Source: Escherichia coli
Lineage (GTDB): Bacteria > Pseudomonadota > Gammaproteobacteria > Enterobacterales > Enterobacteriaceae
Reading direction: 5' to 3' (one strand)
Length of the DNA: 33,301 bases
NCBI RefSeq assembly: GCF_002854065.1
Contig: NZ_CP024149.1
How positions within the stretch are numbered: position 1 is the first letter of the stretch; the number at the start of each line of letters is the position of its first letter. Of this stretch, positions 26,215-29,200 are shown piece after piece. The position numbers were made by a program.

Positions 26215-29200
26215 TGAATCGCGCTCTGCCGCTTCGTTCGATACAACCATGAGGAAAACCATGCGAAATGAAAAAAATCGCTTAAAATGCGATTCAGAGC
26301 GTTTTAGGGAGGTTCTGTTAGTTCTCCTGCATTGCGCCCGTAGTTCGCTAACGCTCACACGCGCAGTACAGCGCCCCGCCATGCTGCAATGCACCAGGGC
26401 GGGGTAAACTCGCTTGCGCTCGCGCTAACTGCGGCATTCTGCGGCGCAAATCAGCATAATCATGGCCTGCTGGTCAGTTGGGCTTTGCAGGGTGAAGGGA
26501 TGGCCTGTGCACCCTGGTACGTTCGTCAGCGGCTGCGCCGCGCTTCGGGGCGATGTGGCTCCTGTGCTGCCCTGGTATTTTCGTTCGCCCCTTCCATCCG
26601 CTTACGCGGATTAAAAAACGTGATAACAATCACTTATCGAGTAAAAAAACGGGAGAAAACTTGCAAATACGACTTAAAGGTCGTATTATTGTTTCATCGA
26701 AAGGGGAATGGCCCCTCTCACAATAGCCCAGCAGGGCAGGAGATTAAAAAAATGAATATCCAGGAAGCATTAAACGTTTTTGGATTATCCGGCGAATTAA
26801 CTGAAAAAGATATCAAAGCAGCATACAGAAAAGCCGCTTTAAAATATCATCCAGATCGTAACCCGTTAGGGGCTGAACTGATGAAAGCGGTAAATGCAGC
26901 TTTTGATGTATTGATGGCAAATATTGATAAAATAAATCAGTTCCAGAGCACTGATGAACATGCACGATATAATTACGGTGATGACCTGGAAAAAGTATTA
27001 AACGTTCTTTCTGGTTTATCTGGTCTGGTATTTGAAGTGATAGGTAACTGGGTCTGGATTAGTGGAGAAACCATTACACATAAGGAAACTTTAAAAGAAA
27101 TCGGGTGTAAATGGGCGGCAAAGAAAAAACAATGGTTTTATCGTCCAGACGAACATAAAAGTTACTGGAATCGTGAAGAACACACGATAGAAGAAATCCG
27201 CGCAAAATACGGTACAACCGGACAGCGCAGGGCGACAGGGTGGCAACGCGTGGAAACCAGAGCGTAACCAGAACGGGGGCGAGAAGCCCCCGATATTATA
27301 GCCAGCCCGTCTTTTGGGGCATCGAACCCAAAAAGACGGGAACAGCAGCCACGTAGCAAAAAGGGAAACAGATGAACTCTTTTTTTGAACAATATCACCC
27401 TGTCTTTGAAGTTGTCTGCCGTATCCTGGGGAACGGCTGGCGCGTGAACAAACTTGATGATTGTTCGTCTCGTATAAAACTGACGTCACCGCAGTTTAAA
27501 AATTACTCTGTGCATATTCGGATGGAAAAAGACCGCTTTTCTGTGGTGGGGAGTGTGGATAGTCGTTCCTGGCGTAGTCCGCATCATGTTTGCACGTTAT
27601 CCAGAAAACGGAATCCCGTTGATATTGCAGCCGATATCGAGCGAAAAATTCTGGTAAATGCTTCGCAGGAGGTGTTACAGGCGATTGAGTATGAGAAACA
27701 CCAGGTGGAAAAAAAGGACGAAATTCTGATCCTGAAAGGTATGTTATCGCAACTTGTCCAGCTTGAAAGCTGGTATGGGGCATTGACAGGCTTTAAAGCT
27801 GAAAACGGATTGAACGGTAAAGTCACCGAACAGGGCGACAGTTATGATTTACAGATTCGGGGCTTGAGTATAGATCAACTTGTTAAAATTACAGGGTATT
27901 TGAAACAGTTATGAGAAAAAATAAAGGTGATGTGACTTATTTTCTTGAAAAAGAAGGTGACAATTACAGGCTTACAAAAAGGATAAAAGCCAGAACAAAT
28001 GTTAAAATCGGGAACAAAACTACGAAAATTACATTGTATGATGCTGTACTGAATGAGAATGAATTACAACATATTGATTTTACGTGTGCCGGATTAAGGG
28101 AAGACGATGAGACGCCAGTTAAGAATTTAATTAAGGAGTTTATGTTAAATGAAACCCGATAATACACCTGAAAATGTAAAAAAATTACGTTTAAAAGCAG
28201 GATTAACACAAAAGGAATGCAGTCATATTTATGGTGTTGGGCTAAGAACCTGGCAGAAAAAAGAGGAAGTTAATACTCAAAACAGTCAAAGTCTGTCACT
28301 GGTTGAGTTTGAGTTTCTTTTGTTACTTGCAGGAGAACATCCTGAATACGTGCTCTGCAAAAGGGAGTCAAAATAAAATGACCTGTGATGGTTTTATATT
28401 AGTACCTGGAGTTGCGCTCGTAGCTCGCTGACGCTCACACGCGCAGTACAGCGCCCCGCCATGCTGCAATGCACCAGGGCGGGGTAAACTCGCTTGCGCT
28501 CGCGCTAACTGCGGCATTCTGCGGCGCAAATCAGCATAATCATGGCCTGCTGGTCAGTTGGGCTTTGCAGGGTGAAGGGATGGCCTGTGCACCCTGGTAC
28601 GTTCGTCAGCGGCTGCGCCGCGCTTCGGGGCGATGTGGCTCCTGTGCTGCCCTGGTATTTTCGTTCGCCCCTTCCATCCGCTTACGCGGATTAAAAAACG
28701 TGATAACAATCACTTATCGAGTAAAAAAACGGGAGAAAACTTGCAAATACGACTTAAAGGTCGTATTATTGTTTCATCGAAAGGGGAATGGCCCCTCTCA
28801 CAATAGCCCAGCAGGGCAGGAGATTTAAAATGAAATGCTCATCTGTTTTTACTTCAACCACTAATCATGTTTTCACATTCGAACGAGTAACGCTTTGCAC
28901 TATTATCCTTATGCATAAGGATACTGGACAACAGTATGTTGTCATATTTACTGATAACAATAAAATTCGTGACTATAAAGCCGGAATTGTTCCTCAGTTT
29001 GGCGAACTTAAGCAGAGTGATGTTGATTTAGTCCTTTTCTACAGGGACGAATATGAAAAATATTTTGATTCATTAAAAGATGGCGATGAATGCTTGAGTT
29101 TTAAAGATTTTATTGAGTGTCTTTGTTAAGCATTATGAATGCAGGGGCATCCCTGCATTTTCTGGAAATTTCAATATTGATTCTGAAATTGTCTATTAAC

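Follow-up and report, generated by a model that had tools for sequence, protein, structure and literature searches.

Why should a plasmid keep two almost identical GC-rich repeats of 414 bp ahead of two different operons? The question is raised by an Escherichia coli sequence of 33,301 nucleotides (nt; NZ_CP024149.1, assembly GCF_002854065.1), referred to here as the window. It is a complete 33.3-kb IncX4 plasmid carrying the colistin-resistance gene mcr-1, with the length and gene set of NZ_CP037906. The comparisons lean, modestly, towards the repeat being a leading-region cassette, in which a priming signal of the phage G4 type on the transferred strand lies upstream of a repressor-controlled promoter. 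The repeat is described nowhere in the literature that was searched.

The repeated unit and its G-site-like element

The two copies are identical at 411 of 414 positions and differ at unit positions 7, 13 and 19 only. A preliminary description of the window had reported near-identical GC-rich repeats with three substitutions near their start; this proves correct, with all three falling within the first 19 nt. The unit has a GC content of 55.3%, rising to 63% over the first 260 nt; that of the window is 41.8%. The right end of the unit is a ribosome-binding site, and the flanks beyond both ends are unrelated between the copies.

26332..26745, plus strand: repeat copy 1, whole cassette, heading the J-domain operon
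28412..28825, plus strand: repeat copy 2, whole cassette, heading the operon of open reading frame (ORF) 28830
26338/28418, C/T; 26344/28424, T/C; 26350/28430, A/G: differences between copy 1 and copy 2

Alignments of the unit took in 12-16 copies. There are five modules, in plus-strand order: domain I, a structured part of ~140 nt, an AT-rich spacer, a promoter and a leader. Read 5′ to 3′ on the minus strand, the structured part of copy 1 consists of a hairpin at 26596-26611 with GCGTAAGC, the motif GGAAGG, a stem formed by 26547-26552 and 26586-26591, the motif GAAG, a hairpin at 26529-26541, a pyrimidine tract and CTG. A collinear minus-strand alignment is obtained between this IncX4 part, the region downstream of oriR in R100, its IncI2 counterpart and ssiE, a single-strand initiation (ssi) sequence of F. 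The order shared by all is a hairpin, GGAAGG, a G-rich/C-rich stem, GAAG, a GC hairpin, a pyrimidine tract and CCTGC(A/T/C)A(A/G)(G/A)CC. F ssiE is listed among the known Frpo/ssi sequences (PMC11541004, Supplementary Table 2). It maps to the transferred strand of F near the origin of transfer (oriT), in the leading region.

A covariance model, designated R1 and built from 11 repeat copies only, recovers these relatives over its full length. The elements of the window and the matches to the model are as follows.

26476..26617, minus strand: G-site-like single-strand initiation element, copy 1 (model R1, alignment and pair covariation)
28556..28697, minus strand: G-site-like element, copy 2 (model R1, 151.8 bits)
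26481..26490, minus strand: CTGCAAAGCC, predicted primer start of copy 1, with the T at 26489
28561..28570, minus strand: CTGCAAAGCC, predicted primer start of copy 2, with the T at 28569
IncI2 origin site: 51.9 bits, E-value 5e-13, full length, expected strand
R100 site downstream of oriR: 44.8 bits, E-value 5e-11 to 1e-11, full length, expected strand
F ssiE: 20.6 bits, E-value 4e-4 to 8e-5, full length, expected strand
30476-30595, plus strand: third site of the window, beside oriT; 26.4 bits, E-value 9e-6 to 1e-7, full length

A single CCTGCNARRCC is found in the 20 kb of F leading region, where it falls in ssiE, and a single one in 14 kb of R100, where it coincides with the match to the model. 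A profile of the GC-rich part gives a weak but significant match in IncI2, 700-850 nt downstream of repA. With high confidence, the repeats are related to ssiE and to the R100 site, which we take to be the published G site. The CTG of the R100 match lies ~365 nt past the right end of oriR, as placed from a DnaA box at R100 9845 and an oriR length of 188 bp. In plasmid R1, leading-strand synthesis is reportedly primed by primase alone ~400 bp downstream of oriR; the position of the R100 CTG fits this start. A 384-nt block downstream of the origin in an IncI2 plasmid (1494-1877) is 88% identical to R100 10135-10519, contains the G-site-like element and is bordered by flanks that cannot be aligned.

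The predicted primer start, CTGCAAAGCC, is the 10-mer found at the primer start of phage G4 (record positions 3996-4005; annotated RNA primer 3970-3997). It occurs in the window only in the two repeats, against an expectation of 0.09, and CCTG and GCC are invariant in 15 copies. In G4, primase initiates at the T of a CTG that lies 3′ to the stem-loops (PMC6783573). The element shows three features of a G4-type signal: the relationship to F ssiE and R100, a CTG 3′ of stem-loops, and stable stem-loops on the active strand. Two other candidate starts were set aside. A TACTG following the GC hairpin is absent from that place in the IncX4, IncI2 and Edwardsiella copies, and an invariant TACTG inside domain I was dropped; the aligned invariant CTG is that in CCTGCAAAGCC. 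A BLAST search of a phage collection at distant settings returned no match to the repeat.

The folding of the element points to single-stranded DNA of the minus sense, which is assigned below as the transferred strand. Over 31 matches to the model, 96.3% of cells are paired compared with 79.6% in shuffles, and compensatory changes occur in 12 of 20 pairs, across three helices, compared with at most 4 in slid controls. In the first hairpin of the element, the variable pairs that are not Watson-Crick, at two positions, are G-T on the minus strand and none is A-C. Over 15 copies, 61 mini-hairpin motifs of the form GCG(N)NAGC fall on the transferred strand and 6 on its complement; the counts for the IncX4 unit are 5 on minus and 0 on plus, with 0.33 expected. 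They are also present on the active strand at the R100 site, at F ssiE and in G4. This motif, which is much less stable as RNA than as DNA, is present at the priming sites of G4, St-1 and alpha3 (PMC13037366).

Next to the G-site-like element lies domain I, which folds on the same strand.

26332..26449, minus strand: domain I copy 1, ~120-nt imperfect hairpin TTGCGCC...GGCGCAA (consensus folds)
28412..28529, minus strand: domain I copy 2 (model R2, 131 bits)

Where variable pairs of domain I depart from Watson-Crick, at six positions, they are G-T on the minus strand only and never A-C. Domain I hardly varies among the aligned copies; between backbones, it is 74-94% identical, against 42-84% for the G-site-like part. 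The covariance model of domain I (R2) matches only inside these repeats, with no relative in F, R100 or G4 or beside solitary G-site-like sites.

The preliminary description had offered a different use of the ~330 bp upstream of the promoter, as an activating region or a structured RNA. The former would be double-stranded, the latter sense or antisense, and either would regulate the two operons. The region is indeed structured and strongly conserved where it adjoins the promoter, and in one plasmid family a promoter-less copy lies, in minus sense, inside the virB11-virD4 transcript. However, the wobble pairs exclude a sense RNA fold, and no minus-strand promoter or terminator flanks the region. 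A search of Rfam at gathering and relaxed thresholds, on both strands, gave only chance-level matches below the family thresholds. The DNA-specific mini-hairpins of the minus strand and the relationship to single-strand initiation signals point instead to DNA, and the part also occurs without any promoter. The claim is therefore not supported for the upstream ~290 nt, as activating region or as sense RNA, and the explanation as a whole is improbable. Coding capacity was likewise rejected. Homologous copies of the GC-rich part differ by insertions and deletions of 1, 2 and 4 nt, and since no frame survives these, the ORFs noted earlier, which had looked like read-through, are not genes.

The unit is present in 1140-1188 plasmids of PLSDB, at 2609-3003 places in total (~2.5 per record), and at exactly two places in 28 of the 30 best IncX4 records listed. 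The duplication is therefore not private to one plasmid. Beyond IncX4, the unit occurs in IncI2, in the 42-kb E. coli plasmid NZ_CP129266.1 (six copies), in an Edwardsiella plasmid (three copies), in an IncX6 Serratia plasmid, in an Enterobacter plasmid and in contigs of Erwinia, Pantoea and others. There are 2-6 homogenised copies per plasmid, with an identity of 97-99% within plasmids and of 42-94% between plasmids, depending on the module. The modules are exchanged independently, as the copy ST_c shares domain I with its neighbours (97-99% identical) but not its promoter and leader (51%). Domain I and the G-site-like part, without a promoter, fill the virB11-virD4 gap in NZ_CP129266.1 and in a metagenome-assembled contig, and the promoter and leader, without the GC-rich part, precede a J-domain gene in the Enterobacter plasmid. 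The earlier proposal that a conserved element was fused to two promoters gains support, as the promoters and genes joined to the element differ.

If the repeat had been duplicated recently and neutrally, or were a small mobile element lacking its own function, the near identity of the two copies would follow. Both ideas are very hard to reconcile with multi-copy arrangements found repeatedly across six backbones and over 1100 plasmids, with compensatory covariation and with the independent exchange of modules. The ends of the copies also lack the terminal inverted repeats and target duplications of a transposable element or miniature inverted-repeat transposable element, and their flanks are unrelated. 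Homogenisation had been taken to imply recent duplication or gene conversion: the copies are homogenised within plasmids, but conservation in six backbones speaks against a recent neutral event. The pattern is one of concerted evolution of a functional unit.

Decayed and recombined copies were also encountered. IncI2 carries decayed units at 5639-5894 and 8699-8898; in one of them an internal deletion joins domain I to the G-site-like part, and in the other a partial G-site-like element stands before a canonical TTGACA-17-TATAAT promoter of hicA. At 20480-20724 of NZ_CP129266.1, the copy ST_b is a domain I fragment that directly adjoins a homologue of the 180-amino-acid gene, at the 3′ end of that homologue, which looks like recombination between the repeat and the operon body.

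The direction of transfer and the strand of the elements

The place of the repeats on the plasmid is defined by the replication and transfer features around them.

24471-25343, minus strand: pir or pir-like rep gene
25555-25730: 22-bp tandem iterons (ACCGAGGAAGCTCTCATGTTTA), at least 6 copies, adjoining the pir-like rep gene
30724-30817, minus strand: oriT-like 94-nt repeat adjoining taxA, with the nic-like motif GTCTATCCTG|CA on minus
23934-24027, plus strand: second, inverted oriT-like copy, with the nic-like motif on plus

The order is pir, the iterons, repeat 1, the J-domain gene with three small genes, the last of which encodes a helix-turn-helix (HTH) protein, repeat 2, two small genes, hicAB, the 94-nt oriT-like repeat, taxA and taxC. 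Both repeats thus lie between the iterons and the oriT/taxA/taxC region, pointing toward the taxA-proximal oriT. In each of the six backbones with a visible relaxase gene, the unit points toward oriT. The nic-like motif of the copy at 30724-30817 is accompanied by a taxA-side inverted repeat. The MOBP nic consensus serves to assign the strands: as the nic-like motif of the taxA-side copy is on the minus strand, the minus strand would be the transferred one and the lower coordinates the leading region. As the genes of this region all lie on the plus strand, the transferred strand is their template, and their direction is toward oriT. The same gene arrangement has been described for leading regions (PMC11541004).

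The two arms of the inverted 94-nt oriT-like repeat are 99% complementary and flank a 6.7-kb segment of replication and leading-region genes, with their nic-like motifs facing inward. This would mean two oriT copies on the plasmid, an arrangement also known for R6K.

The G-site-like elements follow the transferred strand closely. Matches to model R1 at an E-value of 1e-3 or below fall on this strand in a ratio of ~24 to 1. NZ_CP129266.1 carries ten elements around its 42 kb, all ten of them on the minus, transferred strand.

NZ_CP129266.1, minus strand: G-site-like elements at 6330, 11668, 14874, 19111, 21632, 23627, 24953, 33313, 39934 and 42304/1-60

Half of these ten are solitary, without domain I or promoter. 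Such solitary sites on the transferred strand fit the old model in which the incoming strand is primed repeatedly, a model that recent work again favours (bioRxiv 10.64898/2026.01.09.698686).

Vegetative replication offers another reason for this polarity. The G-site-like parts might serve to start or restart the leading strand made from the nearby iteron origin, much as at the R1/R100 site downstream of oriR, with the adjacency to promoters incidental. Model R1 finds its closest relatives downstream of IncFII-type and IncI2 origins, and copy 1 lies ~750 nt to the right of the iterons, on the strand that templates a rightward leading strand. In the IncI2 plasmid and in NZ_CP129266.1, moreover, all sites are on the leading-strand template of the RepA replicon. 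Nonetheless, four or five of the ten sites of NZ_CP129266.1 are grouped in the leading region, a long way from the site that belongs to the replicon, and so are all the copies that combine domain I with a promoter cassette. F ssiE, too, occupies the transferred strand of a leading region, and the element remains fused to promoter cassettes in six backbones whose Rep proteins are of three unrelated types; the Rep protein of the Edwardsiella plasmid is distantly pi-like. Vegetative replication as the main function is thus considered unlikely, although it is the most credible of the rival explanations.

Elsewhere in the window, a family of ~25-45-nt repeats (..GTGACATAC..) is found at 17141-19322, clustered upstream of a MipZ/ParA-like gene (18635-19282) and accompanied by a palindrome at 18529-18626. 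The cluster may be a partition site or an operator array. Rfam reports an AgrB antisense RNA at 17477-17565 on the minus strand (58.7 bits); the RefSeq record of the same plasmid annotates a dqlB type I toxin gene.

Promoter, predicted operator and candidate repressor

Downstream of the GC-rich part, each unit carries a conventional promoter followed by a structured leader.

26661..26689 and 28741-28769, plus strand: sigma-70 promoter TTGCAA-17-TATTAT, copies 1 and 2
26666..26687 and 28746-28767: predicted palindromic operator AATACGAC-TTAAAG-GTCGTATT in the spacer, overlapping the -10 element, copies 1 and 2
26696..26751 and ~28776-28829, plus strand: leader, copies 1 and 2
26703-26715, plus strand: leader hairpin 1, GGGG..CCCC
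26726-26737, plus strand: leader hairpin 2, GCCC-AGCA-GGGC
26738-26743, plus strand: ribosome-binding site AGGAGA before the ATG at 26752; in copy 2, before the ATG at 28830
28149..28376, plus strand: gene of a 75-amino-acid Xre-type HTH protein, the last of operon 1, candidate repressor of both promoters

Across 16 cassettes, TTG, TA...T and a spacing of 16-17 nt (17 in the window copies) are kept while the spacer sequence varies. The promoter proposed in the preliminary description is thereby borne out as a conserved feature common to both copies. So are the hairpin and the AGGAGA ahead of 26752 and 28830, the leader hairpins being conserved too. In hairpin 1, G-U pairs are confined to the plus strand, as expected for mRNA, and hairpin 2 shows compensatory variation by eye. 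A long-range pairing of the leader with 26460-26480 was rejected, as by eye it is not kept in the other copies.

The palindrome in the spacer differs in sequence among copies and stays palindromic through compensatory changes. The 75-amino-acid protein matches a transcriptional repressor family, phrog_7950 (E-value 1.1e-5), and an MqsA-type HTH (E-value 1.2e-5). In 10 operons, five classes of palindrome half-site pair with five variants of the recognition helix.

ACGAC, helix GVGLRTWQKKE: IncX4
ACATC, helix GVGLSTWQKKE: IncI2 and operon 1 of NZ_CP129266.1
ACCTC, helix GIGLSSWQKKE: Erwinia
ACCGC, helix GMSLSNWQRKE: Edwardsiella and Enterobacter
AGGTC, helix SMSPRTWRRKE or GMTARSWRRKE: operon 2 of NZ_CP129266.1, a metagenome-assembled contig and Serratia

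Since the half-site changes together with the recognition helix, the palindrome is supported as an operator, and the earlier suggestion of an operator shared by the two copies is strengthened accordingly, as far as co-variation can tell. NZ_CP129266.1 has two half-site classes, and each HTH gene lies within the operon that carries its own palindrome; this provides a control within one plasmid against simple co-descent. The copy ST_d has three G-T pairs in the spacer palindrome, which are too few to tell a hairpin from an operator. The co-variation with the HTH protein favours an operator over a hairpin.

It is here that a single-stranded promoter has to be considered. The GC-rich part could be a promoter of the Frpo/ssi type, or of a new class, at which RNA polymerase transcribes the folded transferred strand before it becomes duplex. 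Like Frpo, and in the same orientation, it lies on the transferred strand ahead of the operons of the leading region, and the element is likewise ~300 nt long, GC-rich, structured and repeated. New classes of single-stranded promoter without sequence similarity to Frpo have also been reported (PMC12672017). The Frpo sequences compared directly were F ssiD and ColIb-P9 Frpo1, and neither has a BLAST match in the window; a profile of the repeat likewise has no match in the F leading region, where both copies of Frpo lie. No hairpin arm in the individual or consensus folds contains a -35/-10 pair. The sole promoter-like site is outside the folded part, and its palindromic spacer cannot pair with a distal arm; what is conserved instead is a conventional promoter with its operator. 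Such transcription is therefore judged about as improbable as the activating region or RNA, and if anything slightly more so.

A proposed course from strand entry to early expression

The preferred explanation, a G4-type priming signal joined to a repressor-controlled promoter in the leading region, suggests the following course of events. On the transferred strand, the template of the leader and ribosome-binding site would enter first, followed by the template of the promoter and operator, the AT-rich spacer, the priming signal and domain I. The entering single strand would be coated by SSB except at the hairpins. DnaG would begin a primer at T26489 or T28569, and DNA polymerase III would extend it rightward, reaching the promoter after ~170 nt and then the operon. 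The promoter and first genes would be the first DNA made duplex after entry. As the promoter would turn duplex in a repressor-free cell, a burst of early expression could follow, until the HTH protein of operon 1 closed both promoters. Priming on the transferred strand is proposed with moderate confidence, and its coupling to early expression with lower confidence.

In a broader form, the proposal would be that priming signals directly upstream of repressor-controlled promoters switch on the first operons through local duplex conversion, that solitary signals along the transferred strand are the basis of the long-postulated discontinuous priming, and that domain I is a new recognition structure. 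This wider version is put forward tentatively and would more readily prove wrong than right.

Several points weigh against the preferred explanation. The likeness to F ssiE is modest; a sequence-only profile of the G-site-like part missed both R100 and ssiE, and the link to these sites needs either structure or the IncI2 intermediate. The explanation leans on the R1/R100 site and F ssiE being primase-dependent, of the G4 type, as reportedly found by Masai and Arai in 1989, Nomura in 1991 and Tanaka in 1994. The alignment used for the pair counts was fitted to model R1, and the GC-rich part, folded by itself, has a weak z-score (-1.84). As the transferred strand is also the leading-strand template in the IncFII-like IncI2 plasmid and NZ_CP129266.1, strand bias by itself cannot separate conjugative from vegetative priming. 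The co-variation of protein and operator could partly be co-inheritance. The main selected function could also lie in domain I, which is better conserved than the G-site-like part and is without a known relative. Finally, the third G-site-like site of the window (30476-30595) is on the non-transferred strand, 130-250 nt from oriT. It could act in the donor as a priming site for the replacement strand, work with the second, inverted copy of oriT or take part in vegetative replication. Weaker matches at the same place and on the same strand occur in two other plasmids of IncX type, the IncX6 Serratia plasmid (41353-41472, E-value 0.0024) and the Enterobacter plasmid (16766-16886, E-value 0.046).

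Among known systems, F ssiE (GenBank D90180) and the R1/R100 G site have a collinear architecture in common with the repeat, and F ssiE also its location. The repeat adds the ~120-nt domain I, a repressor-controlled promoter with leader and 2-6 homogenised copies, and its sequence identity to these sites is too low for BLAST or nhmmer. Synthesis from F ssiE, unlike that from the repeat, would run into no downstream gene. The oric of phage G4 has the identical start 10-mer, stem-loops 5′ of it on the template and the GCG(N)NAGC mini-hairpin. There is no other sequence similarity, the stem-loops differ in number and form, and oric is a phage origin, whereas the repeat is a promoter-linked plasmid cassette.

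Frpo/ssi1-3 and the class 2 and 3 promoters of IncF and IncI1 are also repeated, structured, GC-rich elements of ~300 nt on the transferred strand, upstream of the first-entering operons. In contrast to these, the repeat has no reconstituted -35/-10 pair and would need duplex conversion for expression rather than single-stranded transcription. Zygotic induction by repressor-controlled promoters is known from IncP KorA/KorB and pKM101 ArdK. These systems likewise combine a palindromic operator over the promoter with a plasmid-encoded repressor, and their expression peaks in the repressor-free recipient. The unit differs in that its candidate repressor is a 75-amino-acid Xre-type protein and its promoter is joined to a predicted priming signal.

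The repeat is a genuine, conserved and seemingly functional feature. Its most fitting place is among the G4-type single-strand initiation signals, as a form that has an additional domain, is joined to a promoter cassette under repressor control and is present more than once in the leading region. It is neither Frpo-like nor coding, and a neutral duplication does not account for it. The gene mcr-1 travels mainly on IncX4 and IncI2 plasmids. Research on early expression now centres on the Frpo-type promoters found in IncF and IncI1 plasmids, which IncX4 and IncI2 seem to lack. The joining of a priming signal to a promoter would offer a testable alternative route to both early expression and complementary-strand synthesis. 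The covariance model R1 could be used to map priming signals against the polarity of transfer over all plasmids, and the operator-repressor pairs may provide a handle for shutting off the genes of plasmid establishment.

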